Of a stretch of 32,000 bases of DNA, positions 7,074-18,000 are shown piece after piece. The stretch is from a bacterium (GTDB lineage Bacteria; CG03), in contig JBDRRS010000007.1 in NCBI GenBank assembly GCA_043825615.1, positions 1 through 32,000 on the forward strand. Direction: 5' to 3'. The notes under the pieces are model-generated. The model was not told where the DNA came from and did not search any database. It saw only the letters and a list, made by a program, of their open reading frames with translations. Each line of letters begins with the position of its first letter. Position 1 is the first letter of the stretch. A program made the position numbers and the translations under genes.

Positions 7074-7189
7074 ATCTATCGTTTGCCAAAAAGCAAATCC
7101 CGCACTTCCCCTTTTCTCCTTCTTTTCTTTCTACGTCATCCAAAACCGGAACCGTCCCCATTTTTCTACATTCCTCTCGCTGTATATAA

Positions 7190-10402: not shown

Positions 10403-10711
10403 TTACATCAAACCCGCCGTCCTGCCCACGTCATGGATAAAAGCCAAACCGTTGCCGGGTTTATCAAGTTTCCCGACGGCAACAATCCTGTCGAAGACCT
10501 CATCAACACGCTCGCCGGGAACAACCGTCATAAAGACCTCTTTTTCCGGATTTATGAAAGCCCTCCTGAAAAAACCGAGTTTCTGCCTGACCCCCGTTCC
10601 CCGCGCGTAGAAAATCGTCGCGCCCGAAACATTCATTTTCAAAATTTCCTTCACAATTTTATTGGCTTTTCCCCTGTCCACAACGCACGTAATCAATTTC
10701 AGATTCTCCAT
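10403..10711 (-). CDS. P-II-like (GlnB-fold) small signalling protein, copy 2 (102 aa)
   Basis: It aligns by eye to GlnB topology: b1 KLITCVV, a1, b2 GATIFYARGTG, a short T-loop-like VRQKLGFFRRAFINPEK, b3 EVFMTVV, a2, b4 GLAFIHDV. It is a paralogue of the adjacent gene. Confidence 0.6.
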   Translation of the reverse strand: MENLKLITCVVDRGKANKIVKEILKMNVSGATIFYARGTGVRQKLGFFRRAFINPEKEVFMTVVPGERVDEVFDRIVAVGKLDKPGNGLAFIHDVGRTAGLM

Positions 10712-10770
10712 TCATCCTCCGTCATATTTACTCTTTTATACTGCACTGTGAAAATGACCGTTGCCTTTTA

Positions 10771-11085
10771 TTAATCCCTCTTGTAAAACCCGAACGCCTT
10801 CTCCACGTCCTGAACAAAAACAAAACCCCTCGCCGTTTCCTTCAGATTGGCAAGTTCAATAATTCTGCCGAACATATCATCCGTTTTTTCCTCCGGCACA
10901 ACCGTCATAAAGACATCTTTTTCCGGCTCTATCAACCTTCCCTTAAGCCCGATTTTCTCCCTCACTCCCGTTCCGACGCCGCGGAAACTCGTCACGCCAG
11001 AAATGCCCATTTTCAAAATTTCCTTTATTATACCGTCCGCTTTTCCCTGCTCTACAATGCACGTTATCAACTTATACTTTTCCAT
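10771..11085 (-). CDS. P-II-like (GlnB-fold) small signalling protein, copy 1 (104 aa)
   Basis: MEKYKLITCIVEQGKADGIIKEILKMGISGVTSFRGVGTGVREKIGLKGRLIEPEKDVFMTVVPEEKTDDMFGRIIELANLKETARGFVFVQDVEKAF follows the same b-a-b-b-a-b pattern as GlnB (MKKIEAII...GMTVTEVKGFGRQKG...KIEIVV...GKIFVFDV). Confidence 0.6.
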   Translation of the reverse strand: MEKYKLITCIVEQGKADGIIKEILKMGISGVTSFRGVGTGVREKIGLKGRLIEPEKDVFMTVVPEEKTDDMFGRIIELANLKETARGFVFVQDVEKAFGFYKRD

Positions 11086-11098
11086 ATCTTCCTCCTTA

Positions 11099-11140
11099 TC
11101 AGGGCGGCGGGAGGCTTGCCCCGTTGGGGGTGGCGTCCAT
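11099..11140 (-). promoter_or_regulatory. Intercistronic micro-ORF MDATPNGASLPPP* (13 codons) between the TPR gene and P-II copy 1
   Basis: Its ATG (11140-11138) shares one base with the TPR TAA stop (TAATG). It ends CCG CCG CCC TGA, followed by TAAGGAGGAAGAT and then ATG 11085. It is homologous to the element at 14202-14228. Confidence 0.35.
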
Positions 11141-12012
11141 TACCGCAGACCTCCCTTCTTTCTTTTCCTTTCCTGCTTCTCCAGCGATTTAAGGAACTTT
11201 TTTATGTCCTTATTATCAGGATTTATCTTCAGCGCATCTTCCCAGTTTTTTTTCGCCGCGGAAAAATTTTTAAGCGCGTAATAAGCCGAGCCCCTTCTCA
11301 TCAGGGCAAGCTCCTTGTTTTCGTCCAGCGCCAGAGCTCTGTCGCAGGCAATAATCGCCCCCGTATAATCCGCCTTATAAATGGAATCCAGCGAACTCTG
11401 GAGCAGCTGATGCAGCAAATCCATTCCTTCTATGAGTTTTATCTTGGACCTTTCTTCGGGATAAACGCTTTCAAAATAAGAAAGAATGCCGGTTATCTGT
11501 TCCCGCCGGCGGTCGTCCTTATTTATCTGTCCCGCGTATATCAGCGCGTCAAAAATCAAACCCGGTTTTTTCTCCAGATACGCCACGATGCCTTTTCTCA
11601 CATACTGCAAGACCTTATCCTGACCGGAAGAGTCCTTTACCAGCGAAGAAATTTTTTCAAGTTTTTCTTTTTTTTCAGCGACGCCGGGATAAGTCGGGTC
11701 AATGTCCATTATGCGTTTAGCCGTATCGGAAGCCGCAAACCACCTGCCTGCCATTATCTGTTCTTCAAACGCCCTGACTTTCGGATTGAGTTCGTCCTCT
11801 ATCTTCTGTCTGATGAACTTTATCATCTTTAACGGCGGTGTCTGCTCCGGGTCAATTTCAAGAATTCTCTGCCAGCAGCGTATTGCATCGCTGTATTTCC
11901 CCGCCGTGTAATATTTTACGGCGGAATTATACAGACCTTTTATGTCTTCTCCGGCAAAAGCAATAATGGGGACGGTTCCTAATATGCACAATCCCACCAA
12001 TTTCTTAAACAT
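11140..12012 (-). CDS. Periplasmic TPR-repeat protein (about 290 aa)
   Basis: Signal peptide MFKKLVGLCILGTVPIIAFA-GE. TPR-like helices follow (YNSAVKYYTAGKYSDAIRCWQRILEIDPEQ; MRRGSAYYALKNFSAAKKNWEDALKINPDN). The track start at 12015 is TTG, and ATG at 12012 is more likely. Confidence 0.8.
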   Translation of the reverse strand: MFKKLVGLCILGTVPIIAFAGEDIKGLYNSAVKYYTAGKYSDAIRCWQRILEIDPEQTPPLKMIKFIRQKIEDELNPKVRAFEEQIMAGRWFAASDTAKRIMDIDPTYPGVAEKKEKLEKISSLVKDSSGQDKVLQYVRKGIVAYLEKKPGLIFDALIYAGQINKDDRRREQITGILSYFESVYPEERSKIKLIEGMDLLHQLLQSSLDSIYKADYTGAIIACDRALALDENKELALMRRGSAYYALKNFSAAKKNWEDALKINPDNKDIKKFLKSLEKQERKRKKGGLR

Positions 12013-12064
12013 CAATCGCCAAACTCCATTAAAATCATCTCCTCGGATAATTAGGAACCGTCCC
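11969..12064 (-). promoter_or_regulatory. Perfect 15-bp long-range stem (GGGACGGUUCCUAAU / AUUAGGAACCGUCCC) closing a 66-nt loop that contains the TPR gene SD and start codon
   Basis: Plus-strand 12050-12064 attaggaaccgtccc is the exact reverse complement of 11969-11983 gggacggttcctaat. The 5' arm begins with the last base of the upstream TAG stop (12066-12064). The 3' arm lies in TPR codons about 10-15. Confidence 0.5.
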
Positions 12065-12726
12065 TAATTCTTACTAATTCTTAAAATGCTTATTTCAATG
12101 CGGCGGTTCTGAGCCCGTCCTGATGCGGCGGCGTTATCCGCAACGGGATAATATTCGCCGAAACCGTAAGCGGAAAATCTTCCCGGATGTATTTTTTCAA
12201 CATCAATAAAATATTTTATAACGCTGAATGCCCGGAGGGTTGAAAGTTCGAAATTGCCGCCGGGCAGCTGCCTGAACGAAATATTATCGGTGTGCCCCGC
12301 AACATTTATTTTATTATCCGTTCCTTTTAAGACCTCTGCGACTTTATGCAAAGTCAGATGACTGCTTTTTTTAAGGTCGGAAGAACCCGAATCAAAAAGA
12401 ACGGGGCTCTCCATCATTATTCTTATTTTCCGCGCATCCATTTTGATGACGCCTTCGCCGTCCCTGAATATCTCCGATATTTTTTCAGCCATTTCAACAT
12501 CCTTCATAGAACTTTTTTCCCGCGAAACACCCGCCTGGAGACGCGCGATAACACCTTCGTATCTGACCCCCGACTTCAATGAAATGACATAAAGTATCAG
12601 AAAAAAAATCATACAGAGAAGCATCATCGTGCCGTAAGGCGTTTTCCACGAAGAGGGATCAAAACCCTTCCCGTATTTTACCGCCCTGTCGGTATGCCTT
12701 CTCCCTGAGCCTGCAATCACGCTCAT
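12064..12726 (-). CDS. MotB-like OmpA-domain protein lacking the conserved channel aspartate (220 aa)
   Basis: N-terminal TM WKTPYGTMMLLCMIFFLILY aligns with the neighbour's WLTVFCDMTTNLMLFFLLLY, with Thr at the Asp position. The C-terminal OmpA/MotB fold is present: VLFDSGSSDL...VAGHTDNISF...NFELSTLRAFSVIKYF...GFGEYYPVADNAAASGRAQNRRIEI. ATGA overlap with the upstream gene. Confidence 0.8.
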   Translation of the reverse strand: MSVIAGSGRRHTDRAVKYGKGFDPSSWKTPYGTMMLLCMIFFLILYVISLKSGVRYEGVIARLQAGVSREKSSMKDVEMAEKISEIFRDGEGVIKMDARKIRIMMESPVLFDSGSSDLKKSSHLTLHKVAEVLKGTDNKINVAGHTDNISFRQLPGGNFELSTLRAFSVIKYFIDVEKIHPGRFSAYGFGEYYPVADNAAASGRAQNRRIEISILRISKN

Positions 12727-13391
12727 TCAATATCCTGCTTGAGCAGCACAATTTCAATTCGCCGGTTTTTCTGGCGCGACGTCGGGGTCTCGTTGGAAAA
12801 CCTTGGAAAATACTCTCCGTATCCGGCGGCGACAAACCTTTCCGGCGGGAAACCCCTGCCGATAAAATAATCGATAACGTTTACCGCCCGGCGGGCGGAA
12901 AGTTCCCAGTTCGAACGGAAAAGAGCGCTCTTAATCGGCACATTATCCGTGTGTCCTTCGACAATCACTTTATCGTCCGTCATAGATAAAGTTCTCGCTA
13001 TTTCATTCAGTAATTTCTTCGTTTCATCTTTTACCAGCGCGCCGCCGGAATCAAAAAGCACCGGCGTGTTCAGGACAAGCCGTATCTGGCTTTCATTAAC
13101 CTCCAGGGTGGAGTATTTTTTAAGATTGCCTTTCTGAAGCAGTTCTTCCAAATTGCTCTGCGTTTCATCCTCCGCAAACTTTTTCAGAACATTATCCGCC
13201 TTATGTCTTAAGACCACATCCTTCTTCCCGGCGCTGCTCAGCGCGGAATGCATCTGGCGCTGCTGCGATTGGGAAAGGCGCGTAAAACCGTACAGCAGGA
13301 GAAAAAAAAGCATAAGATTCGTCGTCATATCGCAGAACACGGTAAGCCAGATGGGTTCTCTTTGAACTTTCCTGAACGCCTTAAAAATCAT
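12723..13391 (-). CDS. motB: MotB-type stator subunit with conserved TM aspartate and OmpA-like peptidoglycan-binding domain (222 aa)
   Basis: The TM WLTVFCDMTTNLMLFFLLLY carries the Asp (compare the canonical MotB motif ..yADlmTlLl.FF). C-terminal VLFDSGGALV...VEGHTDNVPI...NWELSARRAVNVIDYF...GYGEYFPRFSNETPTSRQKNRRIEI. Confidence 0.85.
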   Translation of the reverse strand: MIFKAFRKVQREPIWLTVFCDMTTNLMLFFLLLYGFTRLSQSQQRQMHSALSSAGKKDVVLRHKADNVLKKFAEDETQSNLEELLQKGNLKKYSTLEVNESQIRLVLNTPVLFDSGGALVKDETKKLLNEIARTLSMTDDKVIVEGHTDNVPIKSALFRSNWELSARRAVNVIDYFIGRGFPPERFVAAGYGEYFPRFSNETPTSRQKNRRIEIVLLKQDIE

Positions 13392-13418
13392 TTACAAATA
13401 TTCTGCGCGGCCCGTCTT

Positions 13419-14186
13419 TCATTTCTTCCGCTTCTCCCTGATGCGTTTTGAGAGAAACGCCTCAAGACGGTGCAAGGTTATGGACGGGACTTCCTGATTG
13501 AGTATTGATTCTATTCCTTCGGCTATCAGTTCCTTGGCAAGAATCTCATCGTTCGAGTACTCTCCGAGTTTCAGCGAAGCGGGTAAAAAAAGAAAATTCG
13601 CGCCGAAAATACCGTAAAATGTCGTCGTAACGGCAATAGCCATGGAAGCACCCATACTCGCCGGGTCCTGCAGATTTTTCAGAACCTGAATAACCCCTAT
13701 AAGCGTGCCCAGTAAACCGAATATGGGAGAAAAAGTAGCCATTGCCTGCAAGACCCCCGATGTCCTTTCATGCCTCTGGGCGACGGAAAAAATTTCCTGC
13801 CTCATGTTTTCAAGAATTATTTCCTTTTCCACGCCGTCGGATATTTTTTTAACGTTGGCGGAGAGGAATCTGTTCTTTGCCTGAACCGGCGAATCAGACA
13901 GAACCATAAAACCGTTTCTCTTAGCCGCGGCGGACAGAACCGCAATGTCTTTTACGAGTTTGTTTATATCCGTCGGAGGAGGAGGAAAAAGTATGAGTTT
14001 AACCGCAGACGGAACCTGCTTTATGCTGCGGAAAGGAAATGCAATTAACGTCGAACCGAGAGTCCCTCCGAACACAAGAATAGCGGCATCCAAATTAAAA
14101 AGGAGATAAACGACATCCCCGTGAAGCATGACCAAATAAACGGCGCCGGTTCCGAGAGCAAAACCAAGAACAGTCATCAGGTCCAT
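13419..14186 (-). CDS. motA: MotA/PomA-type stator channel protein (255 aa, 4 TM)
   Basis: Flagellar-type architecture: two N-terminal TMs, a large cytoplasmic loop, then TM3/TM4 ATFSPIFGLLGTLIGVIQ and MAIAVTTTFYGIFGANFLFLPASLKL carrying both conserved prolines. MotA-type C-terminal tail AEGIESILNQEVPSITLHRLEAFL. Confidence 0.9.
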   Translation of the reverse strand: MDLMTVLGFALGTGAVYLVMLHGDVVYLLFNLDAAILVFGGTLGSTLIAFPFRSIKQVPSAVKLILFPPPPTDINKLVKDIAVLSAAAKRNGFMVLSDSPVQAKNRFLSANVKKISDGVEKEIILENMRQEIFSVAQRHERTSGVLQAMATFSPIFGLLGTLIGVIQVLKNLQDPASMGASMAIAVTTTFYGIFGANFLFLPASLKLGEYSNDEILAKELIAEGIESILNQEVPSITLHRLEAFLSKRIREKRKK

Positions 14187-14201
14187 ATTTTTCCTTCCTT
14201 A

Positions 14202-14228
14202 TCAGGGCGGCGGGAGGGTGGCGTCCAT
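14202..14228 (-). promoter_or_regulatory. Intercistronic micro-ORF MDATLPPP* (8 codons) between the FliG-like gene and motA
   Basis: Its ATG 14228 lies 1 nt after the upstream TAA stop (14232-14230). It ends CCG CCG CCC TGA, followed by TAAGGAAGGAAAAAT and then ATG 14186. It shares ATGGACGCCACC...CTCCCGCCGCCCTGATAAGGA with 11099-11140. Confidence 0.35.
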
Positions 14229-14229
14229 A

Positions 14230-15630
14230 TTAACCCCGCTTTCCCCGCGGCGGGGCGTCTTCGTCCGCCTGCGGCGTGGCGAGCAAACCGTCTTTTCTCA
14301 ATTTGTCCGCAACGCGGGCGAGCGCTTTTTTATCTTCTCTTAACCTCGCGGGCCCGGGAGATGCGCCAAGTTCTATTTCTTCCTTCAGACGCGTCGCAAT
14401 GCCCTCCGGAAGTTTCTCCAGAATGCCGTTTCTTACGCTTTCTTCCAGCGTCCGGAGCACGTTCGCAAACGCCACCGGCGTGAAACTCCGGCTCAGCAGA
14501 AGAATATCCCCGGAAGTCATATCCGCAAGAGACCCCGCGCGAAAAACAGCCGACCTCAACTCATCCGCAAAAAGCGAGTCGCTCTGCGCTATGAAATCGA
14601 GATAAGAATCCATTTCTTCGTCGCCCAAACCCTCCAGAATTTCTTTAACGACTTCTTTCCCGCCGACCATAAAATCCATCTTCTGCCTGAGATGCTCTTC
14701 CCATTTAAGAACCTCGTCCGGGGGCAGAGTTCTCGTCTGCGCAAGTTTTGACAATGCCTCGCGGGCCTGCGCAGGCTCCAAACCCGACAGGACTTTATTC
14801 GCCACCTGCGGAGCGTAATTGATCAAAACGGCAATGTTTTCGGGCTTTTCCTTCTTAAGAAGAAAAAGAAGTTTATCCGTATTTTCCTCGTTTACAAAAG
14901 AAAAATGCTTTTTGACGCCCTCTCTTTCTCCGCCGGCAGCGCCCATCCCTGCAGCCGGAGCGGCTGCGCTCACAGAGGAACTAAAAGCCGCCGCTGTTTC
15001 GCTTTTTTTCAAAGAACTTTCAAGCGTTTCGGATATAATCCCCGCCGCGCGGGGAAACACGCGCATTCCGAAAACAAAAAGAACCGCTATCAGAATAACG
15101 GCAAGACCTGAAAACAGCAGACCCCATAAATGCGGCGGATATATGATATCCGACCACTTGAAGGGATTTTCTCTGAAATTCATTTTCTTGATGATGAGCG
15201 CATCGCCGCGGGCGGCCTCAAGCCCGAGGACGCTCGTCGAGACCTCTCTTATTATATTAACCATGCTTTCGGGAAGGCCGTTGTCCACGATAATCTGCGC
15301 AGTGAGTTTCTTTATGTTTTTCGCCGTGTCTCCGAGGTCAAGACTCGCCAGCCCGAGGCCGAGTTTCTCCTGCAGGGGAACCCCCGGCAGGACGACCGCC
15401 TCCTCATCCTCATCTTCCGAACTGCTGCTTATCAACTGAACGTTTATAACGATTAACAGCTTGTCCGTCCCTGTTATTTCGGTCAATATCCGTCTTAACC
15501 TTTCCTCAAGATTCTTTTCTATGGCGATTTTTGTTTCTATGTCGGAACCTTGTTTTGCAAAGGCATTGCCCGGCAGCGCAGGAAGGAAAAAACAGAAGAG
15601 CGAGAAAAGAATAATGGGGACGGTTCCCAT
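14230..15630 (-). CDS. Bitopic membrane protein (466 aa): signal/TM, periplasmic domain of about 140 aa resembling a FliF/YscJ ring-building motif, TM, Ala/Ser linker, cytoplasmic FliG-like middle and C-terminal domains
   Basis: aa 1-25 MGTVPIILFSLFCFFLPALPGNAFA; aa 168-192 LWGLLFSGLAVILIAVLFVFGMRVF. aa 243-450 align by eye with FliG. LLKKEKPENIAVLINYAPQVANKVLSGLEP matches fLqnEHPQtiAliLsyLdpekAaevLseLpe. MVGGKEVVKEIL matches the Gly-Gly linker ..GGvkavaeIL. ILEKLPEGIATRLKEEIELGASPGPARLREDKKALARVADKLRKDGLL matches fLsNMSkRAaemLrEDLealGPVRlsdVeeAQqkIvei.RrLeeeGei. The periplasmic part (LEERLRRILTEITGTDKLLIVINVQL...LTAQIIVDNGLPESMVNIIREVSTSVLGLEAARGDALIIKKM) resembles FliF/YscJ RBM strings. Confidence 0.65.
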   Translation of the reverse strand: MGTVPIILFSLFCFFLPALPGNAFAKQGSDIETKIAIEKNLEERLRRILTEITGTDKLLIVINVQLISSSSEDEDEEAVVLPGVPLQEKLGLGLASLDLGDTAKNIKKLTAQIIVDNGLPESMVNIIREVSTSVLGLEAARGDALIIKKMNFRENPFKWSDIIYPPHLWGLLFSGLAVILIAVLFVFGMRVFPRAAGIISETLESSLKKSETAAAFSSSVSAAAPAAGMGAAGGEREGVKKHFSFVNEENTDKLLFLLKKEKPENIAVLINYAPQVANKVLSGLEPAQAREALSKLAQTRTLPPDEVLKWEEHLRQKMDFMVGGKEVVKEILEGLGDEEMDSYLDFIAQSDSLFADELRSAVFRAGSLADMTSGDILLLSRSFTPVAFANVLRTLEESVRNGILEKLPEGIATRLKEEIELGASPGPARLREDKKALARVADKLRKDGLLATPQADEDAPPRGKRG

Positions 15631-15635
15631 TACTT

Positions 15636-16097
15636 TTAAAACTCCTCCGCAACAACACCCGCTATCATCCTGACCGTTTCAATGTCCTGCTGGGAAAGGA
15701 CTTCCTTCGACGTGAGTTTTTTCGCGTTAATAACGCCGATTGCCCTGCCGTTTTTTATCACCGGCACGCTTAAGCCGGAAGTTATATTCTCATACTTTGC
15801 CAAATGCGCAAAACTTCTGTGCTGGGAAACTTCGCCGACGATAAGAAACGGTTTTTTTTCTGAAACGGCGCGGCCGGCGACCCTCTCGCCGACTTTGATT
15901 TTTATCCCGAGTTTCTTGTTCGCGCTCTCGGCGTCGGGTTCTGCTGCCGCCACAATTTCTATCTCATCCGACGTTTCATCCCTGAGCATAAAAGAGCATC
16001 CGTCGGCTTTTATGAAACCGGCAAGAATCTTCAGTGCGACAACAACCACTTTCCTTTTTTCCGCTCCGAGCTTTTCATCCGACACAAAAACAGGCAT
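15636..16097 (-). CDS. Stand-alone GAF-domain protein (about 153 aa); first gene of the operon
   Basis: ILAGFIKADGCSFMLRDETSDEIEIVAAAEPD...GERVAGRAVSEKKPFLIVGEVSQHRSFAHL...ITSGLSVPVIKNGRAIGVINAKK is a typical GAF pattern. The track start at 16136 is TTG. ATG 16097 (MPVFVSDEK) has GAAGGGGG upstream. Confidence 0.75.
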   Translation of the reverse strand: MPVFVSDEKLGAEKRKVVVVALKILAGFIKADGCSFMLRDETSDEIEIVAAAEPDAESANKKLGIKIKVGERVAGRAVSEKKPFLIVGEVSQHRSFAHLAKYENITSGLSVPVIKNGRAIGVINAKKLTSKEVLSQQDIETVRMIAGVVAEEF

Positions 16098-16173
16098 AAC
16101 ACCCCCTTCCCCCCGGCGATTCCGCCGGAGGAACAAGTAAGAATAATCACTTTACTCTTTCCCCGTGAAAGGC

Positions 16174-16202
16174 ATTATATAAATTATAATATGGGAAATC
16201 AA
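16174..16202 (-). promoter_or_regulatory. Sigma70-like promoter of the GAF-FliG-like-motAB operon (TTGATT-17-TATAAT)
   Basis: On the minus strand, -35 is at 16202-16197 and -10 at 16179-16174. It sits in the divergent region shared with nadE. Confidence 0.5.
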
Positions 16203-16220
16203 ATCTACTTAGGTGGTAAA

Positions 16221-17018
16221 ATGTTTTTTGATTTTGTAAAATACAAAAATATGAAATTGGAAAAACAGATTGCGAACTGGATTAAAGGACAGGTAAAAAA
16301 AGCAAAGGCAAAGGGTATTGTCGTCGGTTTGAGCGGCGGGGTGGACTCATCCCTCTGCGCGGCTCTGTGCAAAGAAGCCCTCGGTAAAAAACTTTTAGGG
16401 CTGATAATGCCCTGCCATTCGGACACCGTGGATACCGCAGACGCTCTGATGTTTTCCAAAAAATTCAACATCCGGACGAAAAAAATCGACCTGACAAAAA
16501 CTTATGACTCCCTGACCCTGCTGTATCCTTCCGGCGGCAAAACAGCGCTGGCAAACATAAAGCCGCGTCTCAGGATGATTACGCTGTACTACTTTGCCAA
16601 TTCTTTGAATTACCTGGTCTGCGGAACGGGGAATAAGAGCGAAGCAATGATGGGCTACTTCACCAAATACGGAGACGGCGGCGCCGACATTCTGCCGCTG
16701 GGCGATATTCTGAAGACGGAAGTGCGGCACCTCGCCCGTAATATGGGCATACCAAAAAAAATAATTGACAAAGCCCCTTCGGCGGGCCTCTGGAAAGGAC
16801 AAACCGACGAGGGGGAAATGAAGATTACCTACGATAACCTTGACGCTCTTTTATCAAAATTATCTCCTTATCCGGATGGCGGGAGGCTGAAAGTGCGCCG
16901 TGGCGTGGTGGCGTCCGAATTAAAAAAATGGTTGAAAACAAAAAACAAACTGGTAAAAAGAAAAATAAAACAGTCGCGGCACAAACTGTCCCCCCCCCCT
17001 GTTTTCCGGAAATCGTAA
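16221..17018 (+). CDS. nadE: NH3-dependent NAD+ synthetase
   Basis: The PP-loop VVGLSGGVDSS is present, plus KPRLRMITLYYFAN, GTGNKSEAMMGYFTKYGDGGADILPLGDILKTEVRHLA and PSAGLW..QTDE. Start moved to ATG 16221 (SD AGGTGG at 16209-16214), because a TATAAT at 16185-16190 sits directly on the track start at 16191. Confidence 0.9.
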   Translation: MFFDFVKYKNMKLEKQIANWIKGQVKKAKAKGIVVGLSGGVDSSLCAALCKEALGKKLLGLIMPCHSDTVDTADALMFSKKFNIRTKKIDLTKTYDSLTLLYPSGGKTALANIKPRLRMITLYYFANSLNYLVCGTGNKSEAMMGYFTKYGDGGADILPLGDILKTEVRHLARNMGIPKKIIDKAPSAGLWKGQTDEGEMKITYDNLDALLSKLSPYPDGGRLKVRRGVVASELKKWLKTKNKLVKRKIKQSRHKLSPPPVFRKS

Positions 17019-17049
17019 CGGGGTGGTTTTCGGATAAAAAAAACTTCTA

Positions 17050-18000
17050 TTATTTAGACGGACTTTCTCCGGGAACAAACGGCGTCGTTACCCTGTCTAT
17101 ATCCATGGGTATCAATGCTATCTCAATCCTTCTGTTTTTCGTTCTCCCCTCTACCGTGTCATTTGTATCAATGGGTTTGGTGTCGGCATATCCTGCCACC
17201 GAAATAAATATTGAGTCAATACCCACTTTGTCTATCAGATATCTGGCTATGTTCGTCGCTCTCGCTGTTGAAAGCTCCCAGTTTGTGGGGTATTTGCCCC
17301 TTAGTTTGGGTCCAATCGGCACATTATCCGTATGTCCTTCAATACGGATTTGTTTGTCTTTGATATTCTTTAAAATATTCCCGACCCTGTTGAGGACCTG
17401 TTTGCCTTCTTTCCGGACTTCAGCCTCTCCCAGCGGAAACATCAGTTTATCCACGATGTTAACCGACAACTTGTCTTTAAGCTGAGTAATTTTTATCTGT
17501 CCGTCCTGCACTTCCTTTTCCATATCCTGGACAAGATTCTCGTATGTTGACTTCAATCTGCCGACTTCGTCTTCTTTTGCTTTTGATACCGCGTCTATAC
17601 TGTCCTGCAGTTCGATATTCATGGCATTCGCAGCGGACAGCTGTTTCTTTAAATCCAATACGGTTTTTTCTTTTTCCCGTTTACTAACGGTAAGGTCCGC
17701 TATCAATTTGTCTTTTTCGCTTTTTTTGGCCTCCAGCACGGATATGAGATTACTGCTGTCTTTCTGCAAAATTGAATACTGCTCTTTGATTTCCGCCGCC
17801 TCAAGTTCGAGTTTCTGTTTCTCGTTAGAGACCGTCTGCAGGCTTTCTTCCGCCTGCTTCAACTTTGTTATAAGTTCGTCATTCCCGTTACGAAGAACTT
17901 CCGTTTCCTCTACTTTCATCCGGTACTTCCCGGTCGTAACGCATCCGACCAAAAAAACGCAAAATAAACCCATGGCTAAATTCTTAACGCTTCTTTTCAT
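17050..18000 (-). CDS. OmpA-family lipoprotein with a long coiled-coil (about 316 aa)
   Basis: Lipobox LVGC in MKRSVKNLAMGLFCVFLVGCVTTG. A heptad-like, Lys/Glu-rich region of about 170 aa follows. C-terminal IEGHTDNVPIG...NWELSTARATNIARYL...GYADTKPIDTNDTVEGRTKNRRIEI. ATG 18000 has AAGGAGAG upstream, whereas the track start at 18018 is TTG. Confidence 0.85.
   Translation of the reverse strand: MKRSVKNLAMGLFCVFLVGCVTTGKYRMKVEETEVLRNGNDELITKLKQAEESLQTVSNEKQKLELEAAEIKEQYSILQKDSSNLISVLEAKKSEKDKLIADLTVSKREKEKTVLDLKKQLSAANAMNIELQDSIDAVSKAKEDEVGRLKSTYENLVQDMEKEVQDGQIKITQLKDKLSVNIVDKLMFPLGEAEVRKEGKQVLNRVGNILKNIKDKQIRIEGHTDNVPIGPKLRGKYPTNWELSTARATNIARYLIDKVGIDSIFISVAGYADTKPIDTNDTVEGRTKNRRIEIALIPMDIDRVTTPFVPGESPSK

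Follow-up and report, generated by a model that had tools for sequence, protein, structure and literature searches.

As the same short element occupies two gene junctions of one operon, each time with a micro-ORF that ends in three prolines and a stop codon immediately before the next gene, the locus raises the question of whether this peptide is a conserved regulatory leader or a by-product of the DNA that encodes it. The original prediction took it for a conserved relay ORF that sets the stoichiometry of the downstream proteins or makes their translation depend on EF-P or proline status. The window is the whole 32,000-nucleotide stretch of DNA analysed, and its genome (G000; 2.05 Mb, 28 contigs, 93.5% complete assembly) was compared with a same-genus genome (G001), a same-family Elusimicrobiota genome (G002) and seven other family genomes, all of them MAGs; the host family is Elusimicrobiota. 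Contamination of G001 is about 4%, and one of its contigs (C45), which is probably chimeric, was left out of the comparison as a likely contaminant or chimera. This contig carries a P-II gene 100% identical to that of the window, accompanied by a minimal element and, close to the end of the contig, an unrelated flank upstream, and is a probable contaminant or chimeric join through the repeat.

Both minus-strand copies, at the TPR to P-II and the FliG-like to motA junctions, were verified, with the neighbours assigned by Pfam (Table 1). The ATG of the micro-ORF overlaps the upstream stop as TAATG in copy 1 and begins 1 nt after the FliG-like stop in copy 2. The two frames, MDATPNGASLPPP and MDATLPPP, both end Leu-Pro-Pro-Pro-TGA, and the downstream ATG follows the T of the TGA by 16 nt in copy 1 (P-II ATG at 11085) and by 18 nt in copy 2 (motA ATG at 14186), all as first described. 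Two further details had to be corrected. The Shine-Dalgarno (SD) sequence of copy 1, TAAGGAGG, begins directly at the end of the TGA rather than 3-4 nt behind it. The proposed pairing of CCUCC inside the micro-ORF with the downstream SD was not obtained, since the fold predicted for copy 1 instead joins CCUCCC to the old GGGAGG lying upstream at the end of TPR; RNA folding was in any case no better than that of shuffles (z -0.78 for copy 1 and +0.58). Moreover, a third copy, missed at first, lies in the window and about 27 more elsewhere, giving approximately 30 in G000 by genome search.

Table 1. Features of the element copies and their host genes in the window
Feature	Position	Strand	Basis
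TPR protein gene, upstream host of copy 1	11140..12015	-	Pfam TPR_1/TPR_2
P-II-like gene, downstream host of copy 1	10771..11085	-	Pfam PF00543
Left target-site repeat ATGGA: original P-II start, overlaps TPR stop (TAATG), opens micro-ORF	11136..11140	-	Single ATGGA at empty G001 site
Copy 1 element body, 50 nt: left end CGCCACC, hairpin module, C-rich core, TGA-TAA, SD, A-rich spacer	11086..11135	-	55-nt gap against G001
Hairpin module B, 15 nt (CCCC-AAC-GGGG), secondary insert in about 1/3 of copies	11114..11128	-	Presence/absence at orthologous sites
Copy 1 micro-ORF (putatively translated), by-product of duplicated ATG and element	11099..11140 (11140->11099)	-	Sequence
Element-borne SD, 5 nt before P-II ATG	11091..11098	-	Sequence
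Right target-site repeat ATGGA: present P-II start	11081..11085	-	Sequence, Pfam, empty site
Original P-II SD (GGAGG) within TPR 3' end, now facing micro-ORF ATG	11150..11154	-	Kept at empty G001 site
Copy 2, minimal form, 37-nt body; ATGGA repeats 14224-14228 and 14182-14186; supplies motA SD	14182..14228	-	Common to G001, absent in six family genomes
Copy 2 micro-ORF	14228->14202	-	Sequence
MotA-like gene, downstream host of copy 2	13419..14186	-	Pfam PF01618
Hairpin module C, forming last codons of FliG-like gene; same module interrupts other copies	14247..14280	-	Missing from this position in family genomes
Copy 3 with module D, lacking ATG; in-frame antisense insert (60 nt) in nadE	16854..16918	-	Repeat finder, genome search
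nadE, host of copy 3	16191-17018	+	Comparison with family NadE proteins

The origin of copy 1 is apparent from the TPR to P-II junction of G001, which is without the element. There the TPR stop overlaps a single ATGGA, with a GGAGG SD located 9 nt upstream, and the alignment gap against copy 1 is exactly 55 nt, equal to the 50-nt element plus one ATGGA. The single ATGGA at this empty site indicates that the ATG of the micro-ORF is the original start of the host gene, duplicated as a 5-nt target repeat. An SD-like sequence at the original P-II SD position was also found in family genomes. The same junction is empty in four other family genomes and the FliG to motA junction in six, so that the expected recurrence of the element at related stator-operon junctions was not borne out. 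Since the old SD and the TAATG overlap still face the first ATG, the 13-codon micro-ORF of copy 1 is probably translated, terminating right at the new SD. Around this locus G000 and G001 share tandem P-II-like paralogues (window 10575-10711 and 10949-11085), and the family relatives examined have one best-matching P-II gene at that place.

Comparison of G001 and metagenome copies with G000 gave eleven clean empty sites, namely copy 1 and ten others whose gap is exactly 5 nt. The targets of these ten are ATGGA (twice), ATGAA (four times), AAGGA, GCGGA (twice) and ACGGA, giving the consensus NNGRA, and four of all eleven targets are not ATG. One further pair has a 6-nt gap, making the gap exactly 5 nt in 10 of the 11 pairs beyond copy 1, and in one pair (L113) the right pentamer is unlike the target. 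The left and right pentamers are identical in 20 of 30 copies, and base 4 co-varies between the ends in 23 of 24 (p = 8e-6; this and the p-values below are overstated, as the copies share ancestry and are not fully independent). The non-ATG targets AAGGA, CCGGA and TTGGA were found on both sides of the element, which fits true target duplication. The left codon is ATG in 22 of 30 copies (about 73%), and several others lie in SD regions. Judged against a baseline of rough gene calls, the ATG copies are concentrated at coupled junctions: 10 of 22 sit at -4/-1 stop/start overlaps, compared with about 18% of ATGRA starts (p = 0.003), and 15 of 22 lie within -4..+3 (p = 1e-5).

The distribution of the element is narrow. 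Core matches numbered 23 in G000, 37 in G001, 10 in G002 and 0 in the seven other family genomes, whereas a reversed control sequence gave 0 matches in G000, which places the G000 count well outside chance expectation. A GTDB-wide exact scan matched only G001 and G002, and 32 metagenome contigs carry the element, many as tandem arrays of 2-5 units. No Rfam covariance model matched at E<=1 across window 10500-17500; the single match in a viral collection was unrelated; and literature searches for Elusimicrobiota repeats and IS900-type targeting gave nothing. The order of parts is left repeat, CGCYACC, an optional hairpin module of one of three kinds, the C-rich core CTCCCRCCRCCC, TGA-TAAGG, an A-rich spacer of 7-8 nt and right repeat. 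The minimal length is 34-37 nt, rising to about 75 nt with nested hairpins, or 39-83 nt when one repeat is counted. Terminal inverted repeats (TIRs) were not found: by eye the ends are C-rich and A-rich and not complementary, and no such pair was present among the longest inverted pairs listed. The modules present vary from genome to genome at nine or more orthologous sites, indicating that modules such as the copy 1 insert are later passengers; module C is also present in partial tRNA copies beside a GIY-YIG gene. The downstream hosts, named by reading N-termini, are unrelated genome-wide and include prfA, rpmJ, nusG, ETF, Rnf and PilT. Within nadE of the window, about 17-20 extra residues form a loop relative to five family NadE proteins, and a metagenome nadE copy carries a shorter, 39-nt form of the element. 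Two other in-frame antisense copies were found in G000, on contigs C8 (about 21540) and C26 (about 55440), making three in-gene copies in total.

If the peptide were the conserved product, its codons should be conserved in preference to the nucleotides, as the original prediction anticipated. A usable start is present in 25 of 30 copies, and 22 of these 25 stop before the downstream ATG, but only 9 of 30 read start-PPP-stop. The TGA of the element is often changed to TGG, TTG or GGA, and one hairpin module shifts the frame of the micro-ORF or fuses it to the host gene. Variation at the third positions of Leu CTC and of the final Pro CCC was seen in 3 of 118 cases, as against 13 of 472 for first and second positions, meaning that these fourfold sites are as fixed as the coding ones; two other fourfold third positions do vary, nearly always G/A (two exceptions in 118). 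The constraint on the micro-ORF is thus at the nucleotide level, with no sign of peptide selection, and its prolines derive from the C-rich DNA core. Of the proposed relay, a passive form may well remain, while control of stoichiometry or sensing of EF-P or proline is unsupported in view of the empty junctions, the unrelated hosts and the small share of PPP-stop copies. A search for the efp gene (PF09285) gave no match in the G000 assembly, probably on account of an assembly gap, as each of the six family relatives searched has the gene.

These observations altogether make it very likely that the repeat is a lineage-specific, non-autonomous, MIRU-like mini insertion element, made harmless by its own stop and SD. 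It inserts in fixed orientation just after an NNGRA pentamer and duplicates those 5 nt, the pentamer usually being a start codon (ATGGA or ATGAA) that often overlaps the upstream stop, and sometimes lying in an SD region. The element end, TGA-TAAGG with the A-rich spacer, gives the duplicate ATG a new SD. Ribosomes arriving from the upstream gene or from the old SD may translate the micro-ORF and terminate at the new SD, or may initiate there afresh. As the host gene would stay expressed, the insertion should be nearly neutral and persist. Small hairpins enter the core later, and copies can amplify in tandem, as seen in the module turnover and the arrays.

For the mobilising enzyme, our leading guess is a trans-acting single-strand enzyme of HUH/Y1 type. 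No mobilising gene adjoining the element ends and no REP-type stem were found. RAYT genes number 2, 2 and 1 in G000, G001 and G002, these MAGs being incomplete, and all five loci have other repeats at their flanks; a search of five genomes gave neither IS110 nor reverse transcriptase. Three candidate partners were rejected: DUF559 endonuclease genes are flanked by true triplex motifs instead, small GIY-YIG genes by partial tRNA duplicates with other hairpins, and a short RAYT of G001, whose repeats end in CGCTAC, had no counterpart detected in G000 or G002.

Several other repeats were seen alongside. A second family with the core GGAACCGTCCCC occurs in the window at 7148, 11965-11979, 12054 and 15613-15627 and at dozens of sites genome-wide, where it lies at the starts and ends of genes and within signal peptides; RAYT genes on G000 contig C10 and G002 contig C25 have similar ends at their flanks. 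A RAYT cassette (G000 C3:161100-162100) precedes a cmk-like gene, with its repeat end forming the cmk-like start codon, and in G001 that junction carries the mini-element instead. Small GIY-YIG genes (e.g. G000 C12:1900-2400) are situated between a tRNA-Pro-like gene and incomplete duplicate copies of that gene, in which the anticodon arm is replaced by a CCGCC-NNN-GGCGG hairpin; these genes are a possible mobiliser of the hairpin modules. A repeat of about 150-190 nt starting ATGTTGGCACGG inserts right behind the element SD, duplicating the element 3' end (G000 C4:111350-111540, C18:18640, C19:38170-38320 and C19:24170-24350). DUF559 endonuclease genes (e.g. G000 C11:86900-87300) are bracketed by triplex-motif repeats, of which G000 has about 40.

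The fourth base of the target is complementary to the fourth base of the element. In G000, GGA goes with CGCC in 20 of 20 copies and GAA with CGCT in 9 of 9; the counts in G001 are 25:1 and 0:9, and the rule holds wherever the empty target is known (7 of 7 and 4 of 4, that is, 11 events). Read antisense, the left ends of the two forms are GTGG and GTAG. Target choice thus probably depends on base-pair reading or on two subfamilies distinguished by their ends. Other possible explanations of the match are that each of two subfamilies requires a matching core, or that a 6-bp quasi-dyad spans the junction. We put forward only tentatively, and as a reading considerably more apt to fail than to hold, that a mobile element of about 35 nt, without terminal inverted repeats or a hairpin, reads the +4 base of the start codon by pairing of its terminal base (GTAG to ATGAA, GTGG to ATGGA) and leaves a 5-nt duplication. 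If true, such guided reading would be an insertion chemistry outside the rules of IS200/IS605, RAYT, IS110 and DDE enzymes, and would offer a first clue to the movement of MIRU-like start-codon elements. The complementarity, together with 5-nt duplications across 11 independent events, provides a testable constraint.

Neutral persistence may not be the whole account, as the element could have been co-opted at some coupled, SD-poor junctions, where its new SD, with or without polyproline pausing, would tune or raise translation. The preference for ATG although NNGRA is common elsewhere, the 15 sites common to G000 and its close relatives (G001, metagenome copies), and an own SD in 2 of 10 coupled targets compared with a 39% baseline (not significant, p = 0.18) all point in this direction. 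At least 11 sites nevertheless differ in occupancy between congeners, modules come and go at shared sites, and neutrality with targeting gives the same pattern, leaving co-option unlikely.

Less likely again is descent from a known repeat, either a GTAG-type REP/REPIN end or a BoxC/triplex motif, that has lost a hairpin arm. The antisense left ends GTAG and GTGG do equal the guide variants by which a REP system changes its cleavage from CT to CC (PMC8266576), one G001 RAYT is flanked by CGCTAC-ended repeats, and the two C-rich tracts with CCT-N4-AGG resemble the triplex-motif layout; yet no stem follows GTRG, the target on that strand is T-Y-C and not C-Y, and the RAYT in question was, as noted above, not detected in G000 or G002. 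The purine arm of 3 nt also falls short of the 6 or more needed (PMC4666352), and no intact long-hairpin ancestor was detected above background in 26 phylum genomes, in which two matches look like chance.

Spread by microhomology-directed template switching, or by ectopic conversion between the NNGRA core of a resident copy and that of a new start region, with no dedicated transposase involved, seems to us doubtful to a slightly greater degree. It would accommodate the lack of TIRs and of a partner enzyme, the strict base 4 match, the frequent tandem arrays and a slight extra flank identity at -6 to -8 (p = 0.01-0.03, with some bias from the choice of register). It agrees poorly with the nearly invariant 5-nt gaps and untouched flanks, with the copying of non-consensus targets to both sides, and with a sudden lineage-restricted expansion, which suits an enzyme. 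The regulatory relay uORF itself, in spite of a PPP-stop adjoining the SD in both operon copies, synonymous CCG/CCA changes, regular termination before the downstream ATG and enrichment at coupled junctions, is very improbable, because the element is absent from orthologous junctions, few copies keep an intact frame and stop, third positions of two codons vary no more than first and second positions, and copies exist without ATG and antisense within genes.

The mini insertion element favoured here can be set against known systems. The proline-rich leader peptides of mgtL and mgtP are conserved at a single locus and coupled to attenuator structures. The element shares with them a short ORF with consecutive prolines before a gene, but is multi-copy, presence-polymorphic and frame-unstable, and its peptide is not kept at orthologous loci as that of an EF-P- or proline-sensing leader would be. 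Micro-ORFs ending in PPP-stop at operon junctions can thus be footprints of mobile elements, and a false regulatory lead is removed. From MITEs the element differs in having no terminal inverted repeats, while sharing the target-site duplication. Its resemblance to BoxC or intrastrand triplex motifs lies in a pair of C-rich tracts, after which come a short loop and purines; its only stem is CCT/AGG, whereas the motif needs three stems of 6-15 nt (PMC4666352). With REP/REPIN-RAYT (TnpAREP) systems it shares GTAG/GTGG at one end, and a guide base dictating the target base has precedent there (PMC8266576, PMC3479197), but it has no hairpin behind the tetranucleotide, flanks no RAYT and shows the target order YC, not CY. 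Neisseria REP2 and Borrelia IR-A are likewise dispersed, TIR-less repeats giving an RBS and ATG directly before unrelated genes (PMC3184786). REP2, however, is 120-150 bp long with a promoter and two stem-loops, and no duplicated host start is described for it (PMC3184786); the element has no evident promoter and lies inside operons.

The closest likeness is to MIRU (Supply et al. 1997), which, as summarised in two reviews, is 40-100 bp long and inserts at start codons so that its own ORF is coupled to the gene and expression is little affected (PMC12548453, PMC3184786); harmlessness through such coupling was proposed in PMC12548453, and how MIRU-like elements move is not stated in either review. 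By description, the two agree in size range, dozens of copies mostly intergenic in operons, insertion at start codons, short direct repeats seen from filled and empty sites, an internal mini-ORF, tandem arrays and presumed harmlessness. They differ in the repeat, which is a 5-nt NNGRA here and a tetranucleotide in MIRU; in the mini-ORF, which ends 13-15 nt upstream at an element-borne SD here and overlaps the next start at -4 in MIRU; and in the imperfect TIRs and GC-rich internal inverted repeats of MIRU, for which the element has only optional hairpin modules. Covariation of target and end base, antisense insertion in coding regions and an Elusimicrobiota host belong to the element only. It would thus resemble MIRU in its working, while the 5-nt repeat, the coupling through its own SD and the lack of TIRs appear, on the descriptions compared, to set it apart as an element of its own. 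At core genes (prfA, rpmJ, nusG, motA) the element resets the strength of the RBS, and proteins such as NadE gain loops from it. The MIRU strategy of start-codon insertion with repair of translation is extended by it to Elusimicrobiota through an element-borne stop and SD, in the manner of a natural bicistronic design.
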